In this document: positions 11,350 to 63,994 of the stretch, one piece after another
Position numbering within the stretch: the first letter of the stretch is position 1
Layout of the letters: each line of letters starts with the position of its first letter
Source: a virus
Lineage: Duplodnaviria > Heunggongvirae > Uroviricota > Caudoviricetes
Direction: 5' to 3' (one strand)
IMG/VR virus record: IMGVR_UViG_3300048672_001143
Location: 11,884 to 75,883 of that record
DNA length: 64,000 bases
Notes under the pieces: generated by a model
The model's database searches: none
What the model was told of the DNA's origin: nothing
What the model saw: only the letters and a program-made list of their open reading frames with translations
Made by a program: the position numbers and the translations under genes

Positions 11350-12165
11350 AGGTTGAAATTATCCGTTGTCTGGTAGCGTAGTCTATTGCGCTTGGCCGCT
11401 TTTTGTCCGTCCATGTCCTACGTAATCACGTTGTTTTTGTAATTTCCCCCTACGCGTATTTTTTGCGGGTACGGTTTGACCGTGTAACCCGTAAAAAATA
11501 CGCGTTGTACCGTCCGTATTTTTTACGGGTTGCTCTTCGATTGAGTTGCACTTTCGCAAGTGTCCAGGGGTAGCCGTCTTTTTGTCCTGTCGTTGTCCTG
11601 TGGTGGTGGACACAAAAAACAGCGCTAAGTTTTTGTTTTAACTCTCTTATTTTTTCTGTCCTGTCCTGTCCTGTCAAAAATAAAGATATAATAATAACAC
11701 AAAAGTATAGTAAGTATTACGTCTCTGTATAAGGATTATAAAGAAGGTATTATAAAAAAGAGTAAAGAAAATAAAAACGACTTGAGGGGGGTACCCAGGA
11801 CAGCACCCAAAAAACGCCTTTTTTCCCTTATAAATCAATAGCTTACGAGCCGTCCACCACCCAAGGACAGGAGGACAGGACAAAAAAAAGTTGTTATAAA
11901 TCAAGCACTTAAATTACCACCCCATAGCCTTCAGCGTGGCCACCCCAGGACAGAAAGGGGCTAATTTTTGCGAGTTAACTGCAAAAAAGCGAAAAACCAC
12001 AAAATAATTGCAAATAACCCGCAAAAAATACGAGTTTAGATAAAAAAGCACTTGACACACGCGCAAATTGCGCGGATAATGGAACCCGTAGACAGAGAAA
12101 CACCCAAACCGATTTTTTAACCTGCCAATTTAGGCAATTTTAACTTTTTAAAGGATACCGCAATC
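11350..12165. promoter_or_regulatory. divergent control region / candidate replication origin: inverted repeats, GTCCTGTCC/GGACAGGAC iterons, AT-rich block
   Basis: Near-perfect inverted repeat CGCGTATTTTTTGCGGG...CCCGTAAAAAATACGCG at ~11455-11515. Multiple GTCCTGTCC copies in both orientations at ~11575-11960. >80% AT block at ~11680-11790. Separates the minus-strand late unit from the plus-strand early genes. Confidence 0.55.
12052..12080 (+). promoter_or_regulatory. sigma70-type promoter TTGACA-17-GATAAT with perfect palindrome CGCGCAAATTGCGCG in the spacer
   Basis: Read directly; 85 nt upstream of the first plus-strand gene. Confidence 0.6.
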
Positions 12166-46369: not shown

Positions 46370-46747
46370 ATGTACGCCTTTGAAGCGGTTAAACGAGACC
46401 TAGATGCCAGCCTGCACCCAGGCTATCGCCCATCTTACCATAATCAAGAGAAACCAGTAGTCCACATAACAGCGTCAACGCTAATCACCTTGCTGGAAGA
46501 ATACGAAAAAATGGACGCAGAATTACGGAGCCTGCACTCAGCTAATCCCGATATTTCGGAGCCCGCAGGAAAGCGTCTGTTTGATAACATAATGGCTTGT
46601 TATTTTAATTGTGGAAAGAATTTCGAACAGACTTTCTTAGTGATAATGGACGCTCTGTACCCTCTGCTGCAAGATAAAATAAAGTCCGATATCGTGCGGC
46701 AACATGCCCCCTTTAACAGCCCTTATCCACCTGGGAGGAGTATCTAA
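46370..46747 (+). CDS. hypothetical protein
   Basis: ORF track. Confidence 0.3.
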   Translation: MYAFEAVKRDLDASLHPGYRPSYHNQEKPVVHITASTLITLLEEYEKMDAELRSLHSANPDISEPAGKRLFDNIMACYFNCGKNFEQTFLVIMDALYPLLQDKIKSDIVRQHAPFNSPYPPGRSI

Positions 46748-46998
46748 TGATCCACAACCTTAAAACTTTACCCTGCTTTTTTCGTGCTACCCTGGCAGGG
46801 GATAAATTATTCGAGATACGCGACAACCGGGACCGTGGATTTCAAAAAGGGGATACTGTTATTTTAAAAGAGTGGGTTCCCGGCGTTATGCAGGGCTCCT
46901 TTACCGGATGCGAAATCGCTGGCAAAATCACCTACGTGTGCGATTACGCGCAAAAAGAAGGATATGTAGTCTTTGGATTTGAGGTTGATGAAAGCTAA
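46747..46998 (+). CDS. ASCH/DUF3850-like (PUA-fold) small protein
   Basis: LPCFFRATLAGDKLFEIRDNRDRGFQKGDTVILKEW matches the DUF3850/ASCH pattern. Confidence 0.5.
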   Translation: MIHNLKTLPCFFRATLAGDKLFEIRDNRDRGFQKGDTVILKEWVPGVMQGSFTGCEIAGKITYVCDYAQKEGYVVFGFEVDES

Positions 46999-48019: not shown

Positions 48020-48253
48020 ATGTCGTTGCCTGATCAGATACTGAAGCTACCTCCGGCTAAGCTGCTGGAATTGCAGGATTCTTTAGTAGAAATAGGCCTT
48101 GTTTTAGAAATGGGTGGGGATTATAAAGCCTTGATACGTAAGAAGCTTTTACGACATCCAGTAGGTATATTGCGCAAGGTGCACAAAGCACTTCTGAAAG
48201 TAGAGCCAAAGGAATTGGACAAAATACTGGCCGAGATAGTAATTAGCACTTGA
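48020..48253 (+). CDS. hypothetical protein
   Basis: ORF track; stop overlaps the -35 of the next promoter. Confidence 0.3.
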   Translation: MSLPDQILKLPPAKLLELQDSLVEIGLVLEMGGDYKALIRKKLLRHPVGILRKVHKALLKVEPKELDKILAEIVIST

Positions 48254-48278
48254 CACACTATACGATAACCTGTAAAAT
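48250..48278 (+). promoter_or_regulatory. sigma70-type promoter TTGACA-17-TAAAAT
   Basis: Read directly; TAGCACTTGACAC. Confidence 0.55.
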
Positions 48279-48468
48279 AGTTGCATAGTTTAAGAAAACG
48301 AGCTGGGCGTATCCCGGACCCCGATGTCAGGTAGAGGTGTGGGGACATTGAAAAACACTACCAATAGCCGCCGGGTTTACTTTCCTTATGGATTCCTTTT
48401 ACCGGTGAGGTTATCGAGTGGTTCACGAGACGAACCCTAATTTTAAAGCGTAGACTGAACAGATACAC

Positions 48469-48861
48469 ATGTCGATTATTTTAGGGCAAAAACTAGGGAG
48501 AGAAGACAAGCCGTATTTGCAGCGGTGGGTAGTTGGAAATGCCAATTTTTCTATTCGGTTACACCATTGGTTTTACGGGGATGATCCGAGAGCTTTTCAC
48601 GACCATGCCTGGGATTTTATTTGCTTTGTAATAAAAGGCTCGTACTACGATGTTACAGAGTCGGGCGAGGAGTTCATGCCGAGAGGAACTATTCGGTTCC
48701 GAAAAGCAGGGCATAAACACACAGTAAAAACGGACGGATGTTGGACGATAGTTATAACAGGAAAAACTAAGCGTAAATGGGGATTCTGGGTTAAGAATAC
48801 CACAGGAAACCCAATTTGGCTTCGTGCCCGGCGGTATTTCTTTAAATACGGGCACCATTAA
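48469..48861 (+). CDS. hypothetical protein
   Basis: ORF track; about 190 nt of untranslated leader upstream. Confidence 0.35.
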   Translation: MSIILGQKLGREDKPYLQRWVVGNANFSIRLHHWFYGDDPRAFHDHAWDFICFVIKGSYYDVTESGEEFMPRGTIRFRKAGHKHTVKTDGCWTIVITGKTKRKWGFWVKNTTGNPIWLRARRYFFKYGHH

Positions 48862-48868
48862 AAGTTTT

Positions 48869-49001
48869 ACGGGGGTAGCTCAACGGGTTAGAGCGCTGTT
48901 AGGGGAAATAGTCATGAATAAAGTACCCGCGAGGTTCCGGCAGATCACCAGGACACGTAACGAAACAGAGGTTGGCGGTTCGAATCCCTCCCCTCGTACC
49001 A
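48869..49001 (+). tRNA. tRNA-like element with a ~57-nt insertion in the anticodon loop; ends in ACCA
   Basis: Acceptor ACGGGGG/CCCTCGT; D-arm GCTC-AACGGGTTA-GAGC; anticodon stem CTGTT ... AACAG separated by ~62 nt; T-arm GGCGG-TTCGAAT-CCCTC with one mismatch. Overlapping track ORF 48824..49051 judged noncoding. Confidence 0.4.
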
Positions 49002-49023
49002 ATTTCCTAAAGGGGAAAACACT

Positions 49024-49049
49024 CAAGCCCTTGCATGAGGGCTCTTTTT
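49024..49049 (+). terminator. rho-independent terminator AGCCCTTGCATGAGGGCTCTTTTT
   Basis: 6-bp stem plus T5. Confidence 0.55.
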
Positions 49050-49105
49050 AAATCGCTGGGACGGCTGCAAGCTAACGATTACTACAGCCCCAGCGATTTA
49101 AAAAG
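49046..49105. repeat. long inverted repeat TTTAAATCGCTGGG - 25 nt - CCCAGCGATTTAAA
   Basis: 14-bp perfect stem, read directly. Confidence 0.6.
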
Positions 49106-49460
49106 CAGCGATGTGGAAAGTAGACACATTCTTGAAGTCGCGTTGGCGCCTGTCTGTTGAGTCGCGATAAAACGCAGGTATAAACTCGGGTAATTGAAAC
49201 TGGAACGCGATTGAATCCCGAATAGCTGGAGTAACGCCCAGCCTGCTTTACAATCTAGCTTCCTGAACGCCCTTAACAGGGTTATTAGCTTCTCCGGCCT
49301 GAAATACGAAACAGGATAACTGCCGGACGCGAACTTAGCCGCGTGATGAAAGGTGAACGCCTCACCGGGAGACCGCTAAGAAAAAAGACTAAATTAGGAG
49401 GCCGAGGTAACTCTAAACTTGATTTAGCCGGTAGCGTGACAGCTCGGAGAGACGGCAAAC

Positions 49461-49538
49461 GCCACTTTAGCTTAGTCGGTTAAAGCAGGCCGCTCATAAC
49501 GGCAAGTGTGCTGGGTTCGAATCCCCCAAGTGGCACCA
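49461..49538 (+). tRNA. tRNA-Met/Ile2-like (anticodon CAU), CCA encoded; imperfect T-stem
   Basis: Acceptor GCCACTT/AAGTGGC perfect; D-arm GCTT-AGTCGGTTA-AAGC; anticodon arm GGCCG-CTCATAA-CGGCA; T-arm CTGGG-TTCGAAT-CCCCC has only 3 clean pairs. Confidence 0.55.
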
Positions 49539-49585
49539 ATTATTACTGAGCCCGCCAGTTGCGGGTATTTTTATCTGGAGAAACC

Positions 49586-54482: not shown

Positions 54483-54698
54483 ATGCCCAACTCAAACAAC
54501 GACGCTTTTTTCGAAGAGCTACGCGAAAGAAACCGGTTTAAAAACGATACCTACTCAAACGAAGACCTGCAAAAGTTAATCGATGGTATGTATGAGCGCT
54601 ACGCTTCTCTTGGGGCTAACCAAGACAAGCACGCGTTGTTTAGAAAGATTTTAGAATTAATCGATGTGCAGATAGCGAGAGCAAAATCCGCTACCTAA
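54483..54698 (+). CDS. hypothetical protein
   Basis: ORF track; same CTGGAGAAATAAAA-ATG leader; stop overlaps the convergent giant ORF's stop. Confidence 0.35.
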   Translation: MPNSNNDAFFEELRERNRFKNDTYSNEDLQKLIDGMYERYASLGANQDKHALFRKILELIDVQIARAKSAT

Positions 54699-57600
54699 TC
54701 CCCATTTTCTTCCCGCAATCTGTTTTGTTCATAGAGGTACGCCAGTCTTGGATTTACGGCGTACCCTCTAATTCCTCTGGCCTGCTCGTTCTTAGCTGTT
54801 CTTACTGCCGATTTATGAATGCTTTCGTAAGTAATTGGCCACGATGGGTGATCTTTCTGCCACTTGCTCAACTCTTCCTGTGGAATCGGTTCGCCTTTTG
54901 TTACCGCTTTCTGGATCTTATTTACCAGTTTAGCGCGAGCATCGGATATCGCAGCTTCTGCGGCTTTATTATACCCGCGTTCAGCGTACAGCACTTCCAT
55001 ATTGGAACTACCCAACCCGATAGCCTGGAACAGTACTTCCATTGCAGAAGCGTCTTTCAATTGCTCCCCGTTCATACTTTCGTACCCAGACTGAGCTAAG
55101 CGGATAGCTTTCATTCCGTCGCCAATCGCTTTGGGCGTAGCGCTTTCTACCCCACGCCATATTTCCCCATCGCCTAGCATTTTTGCGCCATCAGCGATCT
55201 TCTTAACCATGCCACCGAATGGTCCTGCGACTTGTGAGAGATACTCAGTCGCAGCATCTTTCCCTTCCAGGTCTTTCAAAGGCTCTTGGAAGAAGATATT
55301 GCTCAAATTCATACGGGAGGCTAAGTTGACCGGGGTCAACGCATTGCCCAACCCTTTAATAACCGCCGTAGCGAAGGTTTCACCCCCGAGGGAAGTCAAT
55401 CCTACACGAACTTCCTTTTCTACGTCCCACGGCTCATCATCGTCGGATACGGCGTTGCCAAGAGCGTTTAGCACCATGGTTATCGCGCCCATCAAAGGCA
55501 TTCCAAATAAACCGGCAGCCGCACCCTGCATAACAAACAGCGCTGATAGCGATCTAGCTGCTTCTTTCGCTTCTGCTTTTCTGGCGTCGGCCAAAGCTAT
55601 TTCTTCCGGGGTATTTCTCGGCATTTTTTTCCAATACCCAAGCGTATCGACTGCGGTACGACCCCACAAATAAAGCATGGCCTGTGGATATTTTTTATAC
55701 TGCATAACCACGCCAGCTACAGGCCCGCGGAATATGCGAGCCGCGTTTTCAGTCGAGTAATCGCCGTGCGCATCATTGTTTAGCTTACGGGCATACTCCA
55801 AGGCTTCGTAGTGATTTTCTGGATCCCCGTTCAACGCTAAATCATAAGCCGCCAAGAGGGTAATTTCTCGGTTCATCCGCTCACCGTGGTGAAACATCCA
55901 ACCCATCTTTTTGTTGAATTCTTGCAGGCGACCGCCGTAATCTTCCCCTTCACGGCCGATGCCCAAAACATCGAAGAAGTTGGTCCTGGAAACATCACCC
56001 TCTTCTTTAAAATCGCGTAAAGCAGCTAAGCGCCTGGAGATGCGGAGCATTTCTCTAGGATCGCCGTTGTGCGCCCGGAGATAAGCTAATTTTTCTTCCA
56101 TTACCACTGAGATAGATACGTTCCCGTCTTCATCCCGGTAAATGTAATTTCCATTGGCGTCTTTCTTGTTGAAGTTGATAACCGCTTTAAGGAATTCATT
56201 TCTGGTATTTCCAAAAGCTTTTCGGGTTGCATTAACCCCGTATTTACCTACCGCAATGGGCATAGCCACAACGGGTGTTTGAAATAAGTTGACTAAACCA
56301 CTTGATAAACCGAAACCCATAGTCATAACGAAGTCGAATTGGCGAATAGCCGCAGCCACCTGATCCATGCCTGTACTAGAAGTGTTCACCATCGCATTGT
56401 AGGTCTTATTCAACTCTTCGATGGTGTATGCGGCTTTGTGGCTGTTCTCAGTGTTTATGTGGCTAGCAGCTTCTAAAGCTTCCTTATTGCGTACCGCTAC
56501 TCTTTCCAAAGATTCTTCCGGGGAACCTACGGATACCGTATTTTCCCACAACGTTTGCACTTTTCTAAAGCGTTTTACCTGCTCTGGAATTCCAGTAGCT
56601 ATAATATCTGCTATGGCTGCTTCCACTCGCTGTGGGTCTTGGTATTGAGCCCAAAAGCTGGCTATTTTTTCAGCGGTTTTAAGCGCGTCGGAAGCTTCTG
56701 CGCGTTCCCGTGCAGTAGTCGCTTCCGATAGGTTTTTCTGCGCTATGAATAAAGCTTTTGGAACTTTGTTAGCGATATCTAGATGGCTGAATTTATTGCG
56801 TAGCTTAATCGCTTCATCGTACAGATTCTGTTCTTCCGCCGGCGCGTTATCCCTGAGCTCCTCTAAGGCACCTTCTTGTTTCAACTCGTCCCAATTCGCC
56901 CCCAACATTTCAGCCGCTTGCATTTCAGTACGCTTTGCTTCACGAGCAGAAGTTTTAGTCGCTATGTCCAGTGCCAGCTTAGCATCTCGGAGAGATTCGC
57001 CCATGTTACGACCTTCCACCATATTGGCTAATTGGGAAGCTCCGTGGTGGATAGTGTTGGCAAAAGCCCGCATAGCATCTTCATCGAAGCCTTTTGTGCC
57101 TTTGCGGTGCATAGCGTTGTGCCGGACCGAAATATCTGGCAACGTTGCCAAATACATTTGGTGGATCTCATCTTGCAACTCTTTAGAAACCTCGATTGGG
57201 ATATCCGCCGCATCGATTTTCTCGTGAATATTTTTCAAGAAGTTGTCCGATACAGCATCCCCAATCTGCGCGTTTTGCATTTCGCTTAATGAAGTTCCCT
57301 GATCTCTTACCGTTCCACCTTCAGCTTCGAAGTTCTTTACCGCCCGTTTTCTAGCGGCTAAAGACTCATAAGTCATGAACCAGTTTTCGCCTTGGGCATC
57401 TTTTCCGTAAAACCAATGATCCCCGTAACGCTTCAACGGTGCGTAGTACCAGGATAGTGACTGGGATTCAAATTTTATCCGGAGTTGCGCGATCAATCCT
57501 GCCGCAGTTTGAGCATCGATCATCGACTCTTCGATCCGGTGTTCGAGTGCTTCCAGGCGGGCGTTGAATATCTCCTGGTGGAGTTCGTATGTGCCTGAAT

Positions 57601-60600
57601 AAATTTTAGCGGCTTCTGGATTGGTAGATACTAAGGTATCGTAAGCCGGTTTCAAGTTAGCATAAGACTGCCGGCGTAAAATGTTAGAATCTTTCCAGCC
57701 GTTTTTAGCGCGTTTTTCAGTTTGTTTTTGGTCAATCTCGTGCAGTTTGGTCAAGAACTGCTGGGCCTCTTCTTGCGTAGCGAAAGTCGCTGAATTCTTA
57801 TCTGATAAGATAGCACCGGCCTGATCAGCGGCTTCTGACAGCGCAGTTCGGCTTTCCCCGTTGAATTCTGTCATCGAGTACGCTTTAAATTGCCCGCGCA
57901 GTGTTCTCTCTACACCAAGCCAATCTTTGGAGACGTTAATGTCCCGAAGCGTCGACTGTTGCATTATACGACCAGTTTCTTTACGAGCTGGAATCGGTAA
58001 ACCCTTCCACTTGATCGTGGTAATCTGATTCGCTTTATGTAAGTACGGGTCCACCATCGCACGGCGACGCTGCATACCTTCTTCGTAAGTTTTTAGCCCC
58101 GGCAGATAGGATTTAGCGGACTCGATAATCTGGCGAACGGACAAGAACGCTAATTTTTCTTTAGAAAGCGTTTCGAGGAGATTGTCTTTTTTATCCTGTA
58201 ACTCACTTGCGGCTACTCTTAACCCTTCCGGCAGATATTCGGCTACTGCTTCACGCGTGCTGCGGGACGGCCTGCTGAACATCGGCATGCCTTCTGAAAG
58301 AATTTTCTCTTTCATTTCTGGCGTGATGATCAAAGCGGGTTGGTCCTTCAATCGCCCGCCGGCTTTCATTCGTTTTTGGTCTTCTGGGGTTAGGGATTTC
58401 CCTTGCAATGAATCTCGGTAAGGAATACCAATAACAACAGGAACCGATTCAATTTTCCCGCCCCTTTTACGCGCGATTTCCATAGCCGCTTGGGTAATCA
58501 GCGCTGGTTTTCCCTGCGCATTTAAACCGTTTCCGTCGCCGTACATGGCTTGCGTCCAAGCCCCGCCTATTTTAAGATCAAGGCCCGATAATTCTCTAGC
58601 TACGGGAGAAACTTCATCTTCCGGCTCAAAACCTACAGACCCCTGTGATTTAGTGCCTTCCATTCCGATTATCTTGCCCGCTAGGTCTTTCCCAACGTAC
58701 TCTTCAAGTTGCTCCGGGGACTGATCAAATCGGGTATCTACACTATCACCACCCATATCGAAAATGTTTATATCGAATTTTCCGTTGCGCTTTACGTACC
58801 TAATCTTACTAACTTGAGCGCTAAGATCATACCGATCTGCTTGTTGATCACCCGTTGTCCAGGCCACAGAATTGCTATCGCTGTCTATCGCTTGGCTGAT
58901 CGCTTTTTTCATCAGTAAAGAAATATAAGCGTTTGTTGCTTTAGTATTGGAATCGGTAACGAATGGCGCCGCTGGTATTCCTAGTTCTGGCATCCTTTCT
59001 AATTTTCGTATTTCATCTAGAATATCTTGCCTTTTAGACTGAAGACTGACGAATTCTTCGTCAAATTCCTCATCCATACCCGCCTTTAAAGCTAATTCAT
59101 GCATTCGCCCACGTAACTTCACATTTTGATCTTTTAATTCCAGAAGATGCCGTTCTTCGGCATCCGTTAAGGGCCTGTTAAATCCCAGTTTTCTGCCCGC
59201 TTGACTACGTTGGCTTTGTACTTCTTCCAAGAATAAAACTTTATTGCCGTTCGCGTCGATTCGGGTATTGTGTCGAATCCAGCCAATTTGCTTACCTTCT
59301 CCTGTATCACCAAAATGCGTGTGATCGTTCCGGTTGTAAGGCTCCGTAGTTGGTATGGTAACTACAAGTTCGCGGTAATCTACTCCGCCGGGAAGTGTTA
59401 ACTGTGCGTTATCGTGTTTAGGTTGTTGCTTCCGCTGCTGTTCTAAAATATTAACTGTATCCGATAAGTTCTGGTATCTGTCTTTTTCGCTTCTAGATAA
59501 ATCATCAAACTTTATTCTGCCGTATTTAGAATGCTGCTCTGCTCTAAAGTGGTTCATTTCTTCTAACGTAGAACGCAATTTATTTTCGAGCTGCGTATCG
59601 GTACCTAACACCTTATCCTCAACTTTCACGCCGTTAGCGTCCAGAAAATCGCTAACCTGTGCCCGAGACACTTTTCCGGAAAGAGAATCCAACCAATCCG
59701 TAATCCCTGACCAATAAATTTCGTCTTTCTTAACGTCAAATTTAGGCGCGTTGGCCACTAACCAGACTTTCACTTGCTGCGCGTTGCCAAAAACTTTCTC
59801 CGGTGCTTTTTCAACCGCTTTGCTTAGAGCCGAATAAAATCTTGGCGCAGGTTCAGAAGGTCGGCTAAACATTGGCGCTTCAATATCTGATTCGCTAAAC
59901 GGACTCGATTGCACATTCCTTCCGGTCCGTAATTGCGCCTCTGTTTCTGTGCGTTTTCCAGACCATACTGGAACCCCACCCCAGCGATTAGTGTTCGGCG
60001 CTGGGATGATAGAAACGACAGAGTAAACCTGCCCGCCGTTCTGCCTATCCGCTTGCTTACTGACAACCAAAGCCTGCTGCAGCCTAGAAGACCGAAATAT
60101 TAAATGTCCTTTGTCTCGGAATATCTGATCAAAGCCTTTGGCAATCGAACTGACGTGCCGGGCGTAATTTTCAGCGACTTCACTGGTATATCCCGGCACT
60201 GTTCTGCGATCTTTTTCACGAATCGCGTTATCGTGGATGTGCGTAATACCAAAACCTCTATGCTCGGCTGTGGCCACGCCTACCCGTAATTTGATCGGTA
60301 GTTGCTCTACCCCTTTAGAAACCGCTTCACGAGGCGTCATCGCAATAACGCCGTTCATATTACCTTCAAACTGCGGAGTTTCTGGCACAATGAAATCTTC
60401 TACCGATTTCCGAATCCCGTGTAACCGGCGAGATTGTTGCGCTTCTGAATTAAATACCCTTAGCGAAGTAGAATCTCGGTTAGCCGCGGAAGCTAGACTA
60501 GCGCGAAGTAAATCGTGGATATCTTTTTCGCCCATTTTACCGGTGATAAACCCCCGGCCAATACCGTGGGTTACCAAAAAGGATTTGATTTGAGAAATAA

Positions 60601-63600
60601 GGCGTTTAAACCAGCCAGCGTTGGGCGCGTACTCTCCCATCTTGGCGATAACTTCGGCAACGAAAGGTTCCCCGCCGACTTCTAAATGGTCGTAACTTTG
60701 CGCGACTTCGTTCCATATACGTTGCGCGTAGGACCCATCAATCTTGGCCAGATTAGTGATCTGTTTTTGCAGTGAGGAATACCCGTCAGTTCCGAGTATT
60801 CTGCGGAGGTTATAATGCTCCCCAATTTCGTGGAGTACGACTGCTGCCAATCGGTGCGCCGGAGTAGCCGCTAAGTCGATGTGCGCTTTACCCTTAAAAT
60901 AGATAGCCTCATCGTCCGATTGTAAGCTTTCCCCACCCGGCCAATCTTCTTTGCCCTGCGTAAAATTCAAAGTACCGTTGGCAACCAAGGTGTTTATGCC
61001 CGGTCCAAATTTATTTACGAGGTGCGCAATAGCCTCTTCCTGAGTAGCGAATCTCGATTTAAGGTACTCATGGACTTCAGGCTGCTGTAATAACGCTTCG
61101 GTTATCCCTGCTGGTTTTGCCTCAGTAGCCCCTTCGCTAGGAGTTGCTGCACCAGCTCGGCCTCTTTTTCCGCCTGTTGGGCTTTTAACTCTTTTAGCCT
61201 TTTTCGATGGTCCCCCATTATCCGTGCTGGGTGATCCGCTAGATGCGATATCCCCAGTCGTTCCAGTCTGGTTTCGTCTGACATACTCTTCTCCACGTTT
61301 ACCCGCATCTAATTCACGGCTAGATAATTCAAAAATCGATGATAAATCCGTTCCCGGAATAATCGGGCTTTGCCCAAGATAAAGGCCAACCCCATTAGGT
61401 TTTTCAGCCCCAGGCTTAGATTTCGGATGTGGAATGTGGCTTAAGCTAACGGTATTTATGTATTTAGATACCCGCTGTTTAGCGTTTTCCATCGCTTGCT
61501 TAATGGTCGCGTCAGTTCCACCTGTAACAACGGCGCTTAGTTCATCCCCGCCGTGACGGATTAAAACAGCATGCCCTGCTTTACGCATAGAATCCGCAAA
61601 AATATCGCTTATGTTTCGAAATGTGACATTCGCCAAGTGTGCGTTATTTCCAAATTCGGTATTCAATCCGCCTAGGTTTGCGATATCCGCCTCTATGAAA
61701 TGCGCGGGCTCGCCAGTTTCTGCGACATGCTCCATCGCAGCCTTGACAGTTGGCTCCTTATCATGTGGCATGTGAAAACCGGTAACCGCATCCATACTCT
61801 CATCAGGAACTATCTTCTCAATGGTAGCCTCGTCCTTTAATCCGGCCTCTCTGGCCAACTGCCGGCGTTCGGCTATCCGTCGTTCGCTAGGCGATAGAAA
61901 ATCTACCCGCCGCCGATCTTGTGATACTCGTTGCCCTACACTAGCTAAAGCGGCTTCGATATCGCTTGGGTGTTGCGCTTTTACTTTCTGAACGATATCC
62001 TGATTTGCTCTTGGTTTTATGCCTAGACTCTTCGCCACGCGAAGGATCGCTTCATTCGGGAGCGTGTCTATTTTAGCATCGAGTACCGCGTGTTTATCTT
62101 CTAAGCTTACTTCTTGCCCTTTTTCTGGTGATTCTTCTTGCGGGGCTGTGTTCTGGCTTTGGTCATTTAGTTGCTCTGTGGGTTGTGAAATGGGTGCTTC
62201 GGATGTTGCCGGTTCTGTATTCCCGATCCCTTGTCCGCTCGGTTGAAATCCTCCGCCACTGACTGCGGTATCCCCACCTTCTTGGCGAATTTCGGATTGT
62301 GCGCTGCTGCCGCCATCAGGCGTGCTTGGGCTGGACTCTTGGATGGCATTTTGGCTCTCCTGCGACTGGGATCTGCGCTGTATCTCTTCTAAAATAATCT
62401 GTTTTTGGATAGGGGACGTGCCATTTAATACATAATTTTTCAATAGGCTTTTCTTATCCATTCCGCGTATAGCCGTTTGATAAGCCGCATTGTCCGCATC
62501 GATAACCGATTGTTTTACATTTTCTACAGCTTCTATTTGCGGCTGCGCCACTTGATTATCTAAGGCAACAGAAGCCGCGCGATTAAAAATACCATCCGGG
62601 GCCGTTGCCAAATGCTCCTTTAAAGGCTCCGTTACGGCGCTTACTGCTTCAGAAGTTCTTTCTTCCGGTGTTGGTATTTTGTTAGCCGCAATGTGTGCTT
62701 CCATTGCGTCAAGGACTGATTGTGCGGAATCTCCGCGATTGGCCTGGATCCCTAGCTTAGAAGCGGCGTCCGCCAAACGTTTAGTAACTTGCTGCGTTCG
62801 TCCTGCAGGCGTATACGCTTTCTTATAAGCGTCAACGAAATCTTGACTCTCCCGTAGGATAGTCTGATCATCCGTATTTTCAGGTTCTTCTGCTTGCTCG
62901 GCTTCTACTACTTGTTCAGATGGCGTATTTTCTACAGTACCCGCTGGCAAGTAATCCGCTAATAAACTATCTACCTCTGGGGTACTGGGCTCTCCCGCAG
63001 TATTTTCAGGCTCCGCCAGTAACCCTTGTTGTTGATCAATTACCGCTTGTTCTTCAGGAGAAATATTACTCGGCTGCTCCGTCGCGTGCGTTAGCGCACC
63101 CGTAGGAGCGCCCATACCAAAACCGGCTACTGCTCCTAAAGCTGCGGCATTTCCTACACCTTCACCGATATCTTTTCCTAAAGCTAAATTAGAAGCCGCC
63201 TGCTCTTGCCCGGATTGCGCTGTTTCTTGTCCAGCTTCCACCAAGCCACTTTCAAGCCCACGTCTTACCGCATTTTTAGCGGTTGGCTCAATAGCATTCT
63301 GCCCGCCTATAAGCGCAGTGTTAACATCCCCAACGCCTAATTTATTGGCTAATCTTCCCGCACCACCGGTAATCGCACCAGTTAATGCGCCGCTACCGGC
63401 TAAGACCGCTGTTTGCTCCGGAGTTAATAATCCGTTTTCAGTCTGTTGGCGAACCTGCTCGACGTTTTGACCCGCAGTTACACCACCTTCTCCAATGGCG
63501 CCTGCCGCCGAGGGAGATAATTTAGGAGCTACACTCATAGCACCTTTAGCGAGGCCCGCCCCTCCCAGCATAGAAGGCGCAGATTCTAGGATAGTGTGTG

Positions 63601-63994
63601 CAGCAACGGAGGGATTCTCTGCGACGGCTTTTAGAGTGGGTACAAAGCCTTCCGCTTCTTGTACATTTTGAAAAGCTTTTTTCTGCGCCGGAGAATATTC
63701 TTCGGATAAAATATCTTTGGCGCGTTTGAAATCGACGCCGTTTTCTTGAAGGGTTTTACCTATCCGGCCACCTGTTGGTATGTCGGCTAATCCGACTGCA
63801 GTTTCCGGAACCGCGATAATACCTTTTAAAGCGGTGATCCCCGCATCTTTCGCCCTATCGCTGAGGGTTGTTTCGGGTTCTGGCTCCGGAGTCTTCGGCA
63901 TGTAATCTGCCAGTAGTGAGTCTACGTCCGGAGTCTGAGATTTAGGCAGGTAATCTGCCAGCAATGAATCTACGCCTGGTGCGGTAGCCGCCAT
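54695..63994 (-). CDS. giant multidomain (polyvalent) protein of at least 3099 aa with GGDEF-like palm domain and HExxH zincin motif; N-terminus may lie beyond the window
   Basis: Single uninterrupted frame. RHGGDEL preceded by EADIANLGGLNTEFGN (aa ~766-820). VVLHEIGEHYNL (aa ~1052-1063). N-terminal VDSLLADYLP x3; PMFSRPS x2. Antisense track ORFs inside it are artefacts. Confidence 0.7.
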   Translation of the reverse strand: MAATAPGVDSLLADYLPKSQTPDVDSLLADYMPKTPEPEPETTLSDRAKDAGITALKGIIAVPETAVGLADIPTGGRIGKTLQENGVDFKRAKDILSEEYSPAQKKAFQNVQEAEGFVPTLKAVAENPSVAAHTILESAPSMLGGAGLAKGAMSVAPKLSPSAAGAIGEGGVTAGQNVEQVRQQTENGLLTPEQTAVLAGSGALTGAITGGAGRLANKLGVGDVNTALIGGQNAIEPTAKNAVRRGLESGLVEAGQETAQSGQEQAASNLALGKDIGEGVGNAAALGAVAGFGMGAPTGALTHATEQPSNISPEEQAVIDQQQGLLAEPENTAGEPSTPEVDSLLADYLPAGTVENTPSEQVVEAEQAEEPENTDDQTILRESQDFVDAYKKAYTPAGRTQQVTKRLADAASKLGIQANRGDSAQSVLDAMEAHIAANKIPTPEERTSEAVSAVTEPLKEHLATAPDGIFNRAASVALDNQVAQPQIEAVENVKQSVIDADNAAYQTAIRGMDKKSLLKNYVLNGTSPIQKQIILEEIQRRSQSQESQNAIQESSPSTPDGGSSAQSEIRQEGGDTAVSGGGFQPSGQGIGNTEPATSEAPISQPTEQLNDQSQNTAPQEESPEKGQEVSLEDKHAVLDAKIDTLPNEAILRVAKSLGIKPRANQDIVQKVKAQHPSDIEAALASVGQRVSQDRRRVDFLSPSERRIAERRQLAREAGLKDEATIEKIVPDESMDAVTGFHMPHDKEPTVKAAMEHVAETGEPAHFIEADIANLGGLNTEFGNNAHLANVTFRNISDIFADSMRKAGHAVLIRHGGDELSAVVTGGTDATIKQAMENAKQRVSKYINTVSLSHIPHPKSKPGAEKPNGVGLYLGQSPIIPGTDLSSIFELSSRELDAGKRGEEYVRRNQTGTTGDIASSGSPSTDNGGPSKKAKRVKSPTGGKRGRAGAATPSEGATEAKPAGITEALLQQPEVHEYLKSRFATQEEAIAHLVNKFGPGINTLVANGTLNFTQGKEDWPGGESLQSDDEAIYFKGKAHIDLAATPAHRLAAVVLHEIGEHYNLRRILGTDGYSSLQKQITNLAKIDGSYAQRIWNEVAQSYDHLEVGGEPFVAEVIAKMGEYAPNAGWFKRLISQIKSFLVTHGIGRGFITGKMGEKDIHDLLRASLASAANRDSTSLRVFNSEAQQSRRLHGIRKSVEDFIVPETPQFEGNMNGVIAMTPREAVSKGVEQLPIKLRVGVATAEHRGFGITHIHDNAIREKDRRTVPGYTSEVAENYARHVSSIAKGFDQIFRDKGHLIFRSSRLQQALVVSKQADRQNGGQVYSVVSIIPAPNTNRWGGVPVWSGKRTETEAQLRTGRNVQSSPFSESDIEAPMFSRPSEPAPRFYSALSKAVEKAPEKVFGNAQQVKVWLVANAPKFDVKKDEIYWSGITDWLDSLSGKVSRAQVSDFLDANGVKVEDKVLGTDTQLENKLRSTLEEMNHFRAEQHSKYGRIKFDDLSRSEKDRYQNLSDTVNILEQQRKQQPKHDNAQLTLPGGVDYRELVVTIPTTEPYNRNDHTHFGDTGEGKQIGWIRHNTRIDANGNKVLFLEEVQSQRSQAGRKLGFNRPLTDAEERHLLELKDQNVKLRGRMHELALKAGMDEEFDEEFVSLQSKRQDILDEIRKLERMPELGIPAAPFVTDSNTKATNAYISLLMKKAISQAIDSDSNSVAWTTGDQQADRYDLSAQVSKIRYVKRNGKFDINIFDMGGDSVDTRFDQSPEQLEEYVGKDLAGKIIGMEGTKSQGSVGFEPEDEVSPVARELSGLDLKIGGAWTQAMYGDGNGLNAQGKPALITQAAMEIARKRGGKIESVPVVIGIPYRDSLQGKSLTPEDQKRMKAGGRLKDQPALIITPEMKEKILSEGMPMFSRPSRSTREAVAEYLPEGLRVAASELQDKKDNLLETLSKEKLAFLSVRQIIESAKSYLPGLKTYEEGMQRRRAMVDPYLHKANQITTIKWKGLPIPARKETGRIMQQSTLRDINVSKDWLGVERTLRGQFKAYSMTEFNGESRTALSEAADQAGAILSDKNSATFATQEEAQQFLTKLHEIDQKQTEKRAKNGWKDSNILRRQSYANLKPAYDTLVSTNPEAAKIYSGTYELHQEIFNARLEALEHRIEESMIDAQTAAGLIAQLRIKFESQSLSWYYAPLKRYGDHWFYGKDAQGENWFMTYESLAARKRAVKNFEAEGGTVRDQGTSLSEMQNAQIGDAVSDNFLKNIHEKIDAADIPIEVSKELQDEIHQMYLATLPDISVRHNAMHRKGTKGFDEDAMRAFANTIHHGASQLANMVEGRNMGESLRDAKLALDIATKTSAREAKRTEMQAAEMLGANWDELKQEGALEELRDNAPAEEQNLYDEAIKLRNKFSHLDIANKVPKALFIAQKNLSEATTARERAEASDALKTAEKIASFWAQYQDPQRVEAAIADIIATGIPEQVKRFRKVQTLWENTVSVGSPEESLERVAVRNKEALEAASHINTENSHKAAYTIEELNKTYNAMVNTSSTGMDQVAAAIRQFDFVMTMGFGLSSGLVNLFQTPVVAMPIAVGKYGVNATRKAFGNTRNEFLKAVINFNKKDANGNYIYRDEDGNVSISVVMEEKLAYLRAHNGDPREMLRISRRLAALRDFKEEGDVSRTNFFDVLGIGREGEDYGGRLQEFNKKMGWMFHHGERMNREITLLAAYDLALNGDPENHYEALEYARKLNNDAHGDYSTENAARIFRGPVAGVVMQYKKYPQAMLYLWGRTAVDTLGYWKKMPRNTPEEIALADARKAEAKEAARSLSALFVMQGAAAGLFGMPLMGAITMVLNALGNAVSDDDEPWDVEKEVRVGLTSLGGETFATAVIKGLGNALTPVNLASRMNLSNIFFQEPLKDLEGKDAATEYLSQVAGPFGGMVKKIADGAKMLGDGEIWRGVESATPKAIGDGMKAIRLAQSGYESMNGEQLKDASAMEVLFQAIGLGSSNMEVLYAERGYNKAAEAAISDARAKLVNKIQKAVTKGEPIPQEELSKWQKDHPSWPITYESIHKSAVRTAKNEQARGIRGYAVNPRLAYLYEQNRLREENGD

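Follow-up and report, generated by a model that had tools for sequence, protein, structure and literature searches.

A tRNA-like gene with an expanded anticodon loop beside a cupin gene in an N4-like phage, and its relatives in other phages

What use does a phage have for a tRNA gene whose anticodon loop counts 63 nucleotides (nt) instead of seven? The question is raised by a 64,000-nt stretch of a tailed phage (Caudoviricetes; IMG/VR record IMGVR_UViG_3300048672_001143, positions 11,884 to 75,883), hereafter the window, in which a 133-nt RNA gene with a valine-type tRNA frame (48869-49001, plus strand) starts 8 nt downstream of the stop codon of a single-domain, 130-amino acid (aa) metal cupin gene on the same strand. 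The window comes from an N4-like podophage, as marked by an open reading frame (ORF) of 3,099 aa (54695-63994, minus strand), a family A DNA polymerase, a primase, an SNF2 helicase and an SU10-type portal. An earlier reading of the letters alone, here called the original prediction, had described a tRNA-like gene with an insertion in its anticodon loop; it could not see the decisive context, which is the apparently co-transcribed cupin gene together with a large linked family in other phages. The reading that we favour, with moderate confidence and on comparative grounds, is that of a non-decoding tRNA mimic that would retain its insert as an expansion segment and would be co-expressed with, and functionally tied to, the cupin.

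The tRNA-like frame and its conservation

The gene reads ACGGGGG-TA-GCTC-AACGGGTTA-GAGC-G-CTGTT-(63 nt)-AACAG-AGGTT-GGCGG-TTCGAAT-CCCTC-CCCTCGT-ACCA. Its acceptor stem (ACGGGGG/CCCTCGT, 7 bp) holds A1-U72, G3-C70 and a single G4.U69 pair, the D arm encloses AACGGGTTA between GCTC and GAGC, the T arm GGCGG-TTCGAAT-CCCTC (48974-48990) includes a G50.U64 pair, and the terminal ACCA is encoded (48998-49001). The acceptor stem with its one GU pair, the D-arm, the T-loop TTCGAAT and the ACCA end are thus all present as had been predicted; a C51.C63 mismatch in the T stem had not been mentioned. The anticodon-stem strands CTGTT (48896-48900) and AACAG (48964-48968) are partners, as predicted, at a distance of 63 rather than 62 nt, which is made up of a large insertion (56 nt by the intron mode of ARAGORN, predicted as about 57 nt) and seven nucleotides of anticodon-loop type, G-U33-A34-A35-C36-G37-A38 (48957-48963), of which the last five are predicted to be single stranded. 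The Rfam tRNA model RF00005 accepts the gene at 39.4 bits against a gathering cut-off of 29 (E = 8e-5 over the whole window) with a 65-nt insertion state. ARAGORN makes no call on it by default and, in intron mode, reports tRNA-Val(aac) i(33,56). U8, A14, G18G19, G53-T54-Psi55-C56, A58 and C61, which are among the invariant columns of the family described below, are all found in the frame. A canonical tRNA has a 7-nt anticodon loop with U33 and a purine at position 37; the loop of the window gene has 63 nt, and a canonical one would arise only if the insert were excised exactly, an excision that is hypothetical. The tRNA-like feature exceeds chance and is a real gene frame, because of the Rfam score and because three relatives keep the element at the same place, these being two of the checks, by covariance model and by the acceptor and T-arm of related phages, that had been proposed for it.

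The relatives were reached via the neighbouring cupin protein. In the closest, L033 (cupin 94% identical), the same element is found with A1 changed to G, which pairs as G.U, with one D-loop change and with three changes in the insert. In L030 (cupin with 85% amino-acid identity) one of 56 frame positions differs from the window, the T arm is identical as it is in L033, and CCA is kept next to a changed discriminator. The anticodon stem of L030, CCGCT/AGCGG, differs from that of the window by two compensatory double substitutions, all four changes being compensated, within an aligned segment (48484-49005, including the cupin gene) that is 81% identical overall. At the same place, L034 and L035 (73%) have a tRNA frame with an internal region of about 130 nt and L037 (60%) one of about 165 nt, the latter read by eye; across the relatives, the gap between the anticodon-stem strands is 63, 66, 132 and about 165 nt while the exons are conserved. 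In L038, ordinary tRNA-Thr and tRNA-Cys genes occupy the equivalent slot. These alignments show the tRNA frame and its CCA end to be under strong purifying selection. Exact-pattern scans for the whole element or its conserved motif returned the L030 contig only from IMG/VR and nothing from the JGI metagenomes, and blastn against deposited phages gave no relative of the region.

Such a pattern of conservation effectively refutes the idea of a decaying tRNA pseudogene split by an insertion, or of a chance match, which we consider hardly credible. The silence of default ARAGORN, the C.C mismatch in the T stem and an insert that folds no better than shuffled sequence could be taken in its favour. 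Yet conservation is much higher in the exons than in the coding gene next to them, changes in the stem are compensatory, CCA is kept, and the statistics of the family oppose decay.

A family of tRNA-like genes beside the cupin gene

The cupin gene (48469-48861, plus strand; phrog_4786, E = 1.5e-33) and the tRNA-like gene look like parts of one predicted transcription unit. A sigma-70-type promoter, TTGACA-17-TAAAAT (48250-48278, plus strand), assigned by its match to the consensus alone (11/12 positions), stands before the pair and an intrinsic terminator with a 7-bp stem and a T run (49026-49043, plus strand; feature span 49026-49049) closes the unit after it, and the two genes therefore appear to be co-transcribed. 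The intervening 190-nt leader (48279-48468, plus strand) has a predicted fold no more stable than shuffled sequences (z = +0.40), that is, no structured leader was found 5′ of the cupin gene.

Protein alignment of the cupin retrieved 160 further phage loci, 152 of which have upstream sequence. Run locally on the 160 cupin-centred loci, ARAGORN found 93 ordinary tRNAs and 79 intron-mode calls, all on the strand of the cupin, whereas five block-shuffled sets gave zero to one intron-mode call and a reversed set gave one. About 60 long-insert genes are left once calls that merge two ordinary tRNAs are dropped. A tRNA-type gene lies at most 200 nt upstream of the cupin on the same strand in 43 of the 152 loci, and 25 of these 43 are long-insert genes with structured inserts of 16-200 nt. 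Most of these phages have the reverse of the gene order seen in the window, where the tRNA-like gene follows the cupin. The pairing is carried by N4-like podophages, phiCbK-like Caulobacter phages, a Paraglaciecola phage and several jumbo-phage contigs; a set of N4-like DNA selected via a different gene (about 480 kb) yielded only the same L001/L030 element. Among cultured phages, the Caulobacter phages CcrColossus (NC_019406, genes at 241461-241736 and 241749-241997) and CcrPW carry two Phe-type genes each (249-276 nt) and a 127-nt gene of Val type is found in Paraglaciecola Antarctic GD virus 1 (MW805361, about 113999-114125), and in the two records inspected (CcrColossus and Paraglaciecola) the tRNA-like genes fall into unannotated gaps. 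In CcrColossus, the arrays (59-69, 109 and 132-134 kb) hold 27 tRNAs, all without an insert; the two long-insert genes of Phe type adjoin the cupin about 170 kb away from these arrays.

Two further observations concern the tRNAs at these loci. Amber-suppressor-type tRNAs (anticodon CTA, labelled "tRNA-Pyl" by ARAGORN) are frequent in the arrays around the cupin, with at least 11 calls (L048, L050, L052, L055, L062, L069, L125, L126, L128, L137, L147 and others), which hints, from gene content, at stop-codon recoding in several of these phages. CcrColossus has in addition a 126-nt intron-mode call, i(31,32), at 65061-65186 on the plus strand (L205 15561-15686); it falls between gp101 and gp102, where 500 nt are unannotated, and lies apart from the cupin as well as from the tRNA arrays.

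When 28 frames are aligned without their inserts, pairing is seen in 95.2% of the cloverleaf cells (38-54% in slid controls), and changes on both sides affect 18 of the 21 cloverleaf pairs; both ARAGORN and our filter select for pairing, so that these figures are inflated and overstate the case, whereas the strand bias and the shuffle controls are independent of that selection. In the largest class, to which the window gene belongs, the 5′ strand of the anticodon stem is followed after 0-1 nt by the insert, which folds onto itself and leaves 5-9 unpaired nucleotides of the form N-A-C-R-N before the 3′ strand. A35 is invariant (28/28 frames), there is a strong preference for C36 (or U36) and R37, position 34 accepts every base, frequently A, and U33 is found, by eye, in only about half of the Val class. 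The Phe class keeps AUGAAGA at the 3′ side of the insert and the Ile class CUGAU at its 5′ side. G is rare as the first base: it is found in 2 of 32 long-insert genes and in 1 of 17 cupin-abutting genes of ordinary length, against 26 of 46 other tRNAs (p = 3e-6 and 4e-4). The abutting genes of ordinary length have U33 in 8/18 and a 7-nt loop in 13/18, compared with 51/61 and 60/61 for the other tRNAs of the same loci (p = 0.0017), and their loops include C-A-GAU-G-A and A-G-UAC-A-U as well as loops of 6 and 8 nt. Sixteen of 25 long-insert frames have an abutting gene as their best match, though such genes make up only 8 of the 40 candidates (p = 2e-7); the frame of the window gene is closest to L133, an abutting gene of ordinary length with the loop A-G-UAC-A-U. 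The long-insert frames being closest to the abutting genes, the insert would therefore be an expansion of a loop that was already non-canonical and whose short form needs no splicing. The simplest reading of these sequences is that of one tRNA-like family, with constraint on positions 35-37 and with a loop whose 5′ half can freely vary, contract or grow into a structured domain.

The inserts of the family are, as far as comparison and folding predict, structured and under selection, the data for the window clade being thin; the insert shared by L043, L046 and L060 has 40 predicted pairs (-50 kcal/mol) and compensatory changes. The window gene shares the traits of the family, namely the strand of the cupin, a distance of at most 200 nt from it, A1, the nucleotides U-A-A35-C36-G37-A38 before AACAG and an expansion on the 5′ side of the loop.

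A different explanation would be a processing or stability element, whose frame recruits RNase P and 3′ enzymes to free or protect the cupin mRNA (tRNA punctuation) while the loop drifts and expands. The frame does follow the cupin ORF immediately in the N4-like clade, or immediately adjoin its start in most other phages, and on the same strand; promoter and terminator bracket the pair, and the length of the 5′ side of the loop is clearly unconstrained. Such an element is nevertheless unlikely in our view, as it leaves unexplained the invariant A35 with the conserved C36/U36 and R37, the structured, covarying inserts and the 27-nt invariant block described below, and gives no reason why this one gene should keep it across very different phages.

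As for the protein itself, AlphaFold predicts a single cupin domain with high confidence (predicted local distance difference test, pLDDT, 95). H32, H44, H46, H84 and four Arg residues are conserved, and among solved folds the Mn cupin TM1459 comes closest. The protein matched no family of Pfam or NCBIfam, and deposited records label it "cysteine dioxygenase" on the ground of remote similarity; neither sequence nor fold gives a function beyond that of a generic TM1459-like Mn cupin. The link between cupin and RNA is drawn from gene neighbourhood alone. Genes for RNA-directed enzymes were noticed next to the module in some phages: a small RsmD-like methyltransferase directly before the cupin in CcrColossus (gp358; L202 1957-2502), a T4 Rnl1-type RNA ligase and a "phosphatase" before it in the Paraglaciecola phage (gp191-192; L203 432-1855), and an RNA ligase near the module in L036 (3074-4111).

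The insert and the possibility of splicing

The 56-nt insert (48901-48956) sits at the 5′ edge of the anticodon loop (31/32-33), as placed by the intron mode of ARAGORN, and matches no Rfam family. The original prediction had judged it too short for a group I intron, rightly, as group I introns of bacterial tRNAs measure about 200 nt or more and no Rfam intron match was found in the window region at E <= 10. Its suggestion of an archaeal-type intron fails, since the insert does not lie at 37/38 and shows no bulge-helix-bulge (BHB) when folded. This motif, defined here as two 3-nt bulges separated by 4 bp at the exon-intron junctions, was found on the anticodon stem in none of 30 elements including the window, with 0.85 expected from shuffles, which rejects the archaeal or eukaryal intron. 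In 20 related loci, Rfam models of group I introns, small ribozymes, riboswitches and small RNAs gave no match to an insert at E <= 0.1, and three long-insert genes of the Ile class were called plain tRNA (44-52 bits). No k-mer is common to 44 non-redundant inserts beyond shuffle expectation, which makes a shared ribozyme core unlikely. An intron-less allele, sought as an ordinary tRNA that matches the exons of a long-insert gene at 85% identity or more, does not occur in the data.

Two hairpins are predicted within the insert: hairpin 1 (48902-48928, plus strand), with a GGG(G)/CCC stem and a loop of 20-21 nt, and hairpin 2 (48929-48958, plus strand), with the conserved loop C(A/U)GAUCA on a stem that differs between the window and L033 on one side and L030 on the other, this comparison of the window clade extending to three sequences. 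The first 27 nt of the insert, GGGGAAATAGTCATGAATAAAGTACCC, are identical at 27 of 27 positions in all three phages, whereas only about half of the remainder is identical between the window and L030. The block resembles a translation-initiation region, with GGGG as Shine-Dalgarno sequence, a spacer of 7-8 nt and ATG (48914) AAT AAA. Its 20-mer GGAAATAGTCATGAATAAAG occurs nine times in the genome collection (9 bacterial genomes, about five independent lineages; roughly one occurrence is expected by chance), and all occurrences fall at gene starts, which makes the block initiation-like rather than copied from a single host gene. Mimicry of any one host gene was accordingly rejected, the 20-mer being a generic initiation-region sequence. 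No antisense target of the conserved loop was found within the window at up to 3 mismatches, and neither the insert nor its surroundings matched Rfam at E <= 10.

This block invites the idea of a hybrid between tRNA and mRNA, in which it would act as a working ribosome-binding site and start, either loading ribosomes or translating the 45-codon ORF 48914-49051 through the 3′ half of the frame. The conservation of GGGG, spacer and ATG AAT AAA (27/27 in three phages), the finding of the same 20-mer at gene starts in about five bacterial lineages, and a frame that stays open in L030 with the aid of a 3-nt indel are consistent with it. Still, between the window and L033 the 45-codon frame has three non-synonymous and zero synonymous differences, and the L030 peptide is unrelated except for the part dictated by the T arm of the tRNA, so that a conserved peptide is unlikely; we estimate that a frame of this kind would be open by chance in about 10% of cases, no comparable site exists in L034, L037 and other members, and detection of transfer-messenger RNA (tmRNA) is negative. 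The hybrid is therefore quite improbable.

More weight falls on the possibility that the gene is an intron-containing tRNA-Val, from which the 56-nt insert would be excised between position 31/32 and the loop by some activity of host or phage and the halves ligated into a decoding tRNA-Val(AAC). The frame is intact and CCA is encoded, U33, the anticodon triplet and R37 stand beside the 3′ stem strand in the window, L033 and L030, the length of the insert varies while exons are conserved, the Paraglaciecola phage and L036 have RNA ligase genes close to the cupin, and there is a published precedent in the introns of Lak phages (PMC6784885). On the other hand, no BHB (0/30), group I or ribozyme match, shared insert core or intron-less allele was found, and a tblastn search of the 64-kb window for RNA ligase, phosphatase, methyltransferase and Ro homologue found none of them, leaving no candidate ligase or endonuclease there. 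About half of the Val-class relatives cannot supply U33 from either side of the insert, the relatives of ordinary length are already non-canonical, and the anticodon stem is less conserved than part of the insert, contrary to what a passive intron would lead one to expect. To our knowledge, moreover, AAC (A34) is not a normal bacterial valine anticodon. Altogether, we hold a spliced tRNA-Val to be rather unlikely.

In the non-decoding mimic that we favour, RNase P and 3′ trimming would mature the transcript as they do a tRNA, with the insert retained and not spliced out. The enlarged loop, with the missing U33 in many relatives, would keep the RNA from ribosomal decoding. In the window clade, the hairpin of the insert would display a strictly conserved 20-nt initiation-like loop. 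A35/C36 and A73 are the nucleotides read by valyl-tRNA synthetase under the established E. coli identity rules; given their conservation, that enzyme may still recognise the RNA as tRNA-Val and might even charge it. It would then act with the cupin as its substrate, cofactor or ribonucleoprotein (RNP) partner, or else serve as a decoy for a tRNA-directed host factor. The original suggestion of a tRNA-derived regulatory RNA comes closer to these comparative data, which point more precisely to a non-decoding tRNA-like RNA with a retained expansion segment.

Several results weigh against this interpretation, beyond the inflation of the cloverleaf figures by the choice of frames. In 107 of the 152 cupin loci, ARAGORN detected no tRNA-like gene within 200 nt. 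RNA binding is not suggested by the cupin fold, the link to valyl-tRNA synthetase is based on textbook identity rules, and the discriminator of L030 is C73 instead of A73. The insert of the window shows no excess of stability over shuffled sequence (z = +0.57). In addition, the 3′-terminal loop nucleotides of the window clade, GUAACGA (UUUACAU in L030), could, once the insert is removed exactly after position 31, yield a loop of canonical form with U33 and R37, and AUGAAGA of the Phe class is fully canonical, a perfect loop in a phage whose examined arrays lack tRNA-Phe (no ordinary tRNA-Phe in the 149 kb of CcrColossus examined). Some members, perhaps that of the window, could therefore be spliced decoders, and the loop of the Phe class counts among the points for splicing given above.

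Surroundings, known systems and meaning

The non-coding stretch around the gene (48862-49558) had been given as about 600 nt; it is indeed non-coding, measures roughly 700 nt, and includes, besides the tRNA-like gene, the terminator, an inverted repeat and a tRNA-Met gene. The tRNA-Met(CAT) gene (49461-49538, plus strand) is one of three ordinary tRNAs called by ARAGORN in the window, with Gly and Pro at about 10 kb; it is absent from the closest relative L033, where 14 unrelated bases stand between the same flanks (about 2427-2441), so the whole tRNA gene was gained or lost recently. Directly 3′ of the terminator lies a perfect 17-bp inverted repeat (49044-49060/49089-49105), whose 28-nt loop is 93% identical to that of a hairpin in L030 (5776-5805); the latter is found upstream of the cupin gene and its stem arms are unrelated, that is, the loop is kept while stem and location have changed. 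The following 355 nt (49106-49460), conserved in L033 and not in L030, hold no plausible ORF and no Rfam match at E <= 10. The near-consensus sigma-70 promoter (48250-48278) belongs to an N4-like phage, and phages of this group are known for encoding RNA polymerases themselves. The tRNA-like gene of L037 is preceded at a distance of 6 nt by a promoter of its own, TTGCAA-17-TATAAT. An 83-aa DUF3850 protein (ASCH/PUA-like, putatively RNA-binding) is encoded 1.7 kb upstream on the same strand (46747-46998, plus strand); the neighbouring ORFs (DUF3850, TSCPD) give no clue to function.

Among known RNAs, YrlA is the closest analogue in possible mode of action. Like the window RNA as interpreted here, YrlA, whose partner is Ro60/TROVE (Rsr), is a non-decoding tRNA mimic that keeps D-arm, T-arm and acceptor-type helices, has its anticodon end replaced by a structured module and adjoins the gene of a specific protein partner, also in phages. 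Unlike it, YrlA is circularly permuted (T arm, closed acceptor hairpin, D arm), has its ends in the Ro-binding stem and has no free CCA, whereas the window RNA has normal tRNA order, an open acceptor, an encoded CCA, nucleotides 35-37 kept and a cupin instead of TROVE. Membership of YrlA was rejected for the window gene, which is not permuted and gives no RF02553 match at E <= 10, though the model matches the modules of CcrColossus, and the window has no TROVE gene. CcrColossus carries both systems, the TROVE protein gp139 with YrlA-like modules and the cupin with long-insert tRNA-like genes. In this phage, gp139 ("RNA-binding protein"; L206 9700-10450, NC_019406 about 108.7-109.5 kb, minus strand) belongs to the Ro60/TROVE proteins and has YrlA-like modules on its flanks, three in all, at 30-42 bits, below the gathering score of 69; the annotated "tRNA-Gln" at 109217-109284 lies inside such a module and is probably mis-annotated. 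Two intron-mode calls beside gp139 are likewise tandem YrlA modules and were rejected as family members.

The closest published observation is that of the "enigmatic" predicted introns in tRNAs of Lak megaphages (Devoto et al. 2019, PMC6784885). These too are phage tRNA genes missed by standard bacterial finders, with anticodon-loop inserts of tens to about 100 nt whose sequence is conserved between related phages. The example of a tRNA-Tyr (Table S6, PMC6784885) has G1, a canonical 5′ loop half C-U-GUA-U and its insert at 37/38; in contrast, the window gene starts with A1, the insert is placed at 31/32-33, on the 5′ edge of the loop, the "anticodon" has A34 and the partner is a cupin, and the relatives of the gene include members of ordinary length with non-canonical loops. 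Introns of the BHB type are similar in their size of tens of nucleotides and in their place within the anticodon arm, but the window gene, with no BHB and no insert at 37/38, stands in a bacterial-phage context (sigma-70 promoter, intrinsic terminators, encoded CCA). Group I introns also interrupt the anticodon loop of bacterial-type tRNA genes, whereas the 56 nt of the window insert give no match to their conserved catalytic core (P3-P8), and the larger inserts of the relatives do not either.

Two further comparisons concern RNAs that are recognised by tRNA enzymes without being ordinary decoders, as proposed here for the window RNA. The tRNA-like structure (TLS) of turnip yellow mosaic virus is read by valyl-tRNA synthetase via anticodon-type A and C nucleotides; unlike the window gene, the TLSs of plant viruses are pseudoknot-based 3′ ends of RNA genomes and not stand-alone cloverleaf genes. 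The other, tmRNA, joins a tRNA part without D stem and anticodon stem, which needs G3.U70, to an mRNA-like part that recalls the initiation-like block of the window insert. The window gene was rejected as a tmRNA, as the tmRNA search of ARAGORN and Rfam were negative, D stem and anticodon stem are present and position 3 forms G3-C70 instead of G3.U70. No published description of the pairing of a cupin with a tRNA-like gene was found in the literature searchable here, whose coverage is incomplete.

The default mode of ARAGORN misses these genes and standard annotation skips them, so that a common class of phage RNA and its conserved protein partner have gone unnoticed in that literature. If the genes are spliced, they would reveal a new bacterial or phage tRNA-splicing pathway acting at an unprecedented site, the 5′ edge of the loop. 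If they are unspliced mimics, they would form a second protein-partnered tRNA-mimic system in phages, beside Ro/YrlA, and would point to tRNA-directed chemistry or counter-defence, with valine, isoleucine and phenylalanine identity. A tentative extension of this idea is a two-gene module of many unrelated phages consisting of a small Mn/Fe-type cupin and a dedicated non-decoding tRNA mimic of Val, Ile or Phe identity, whose loop would serve as an expansion platform and which would be charged by the host synthetase. The cupin may then act on or with this RNA, either in tRNA-dependent chemistry on the aminoacyl group or on a nucleotide, or as an RNP that subverts a host process directed at tRNA, for example anticodon-nuclease immunity. 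If this is true, the pair would represent a new class of phage RNP, hidden until now as tRNA finders skip its genes.

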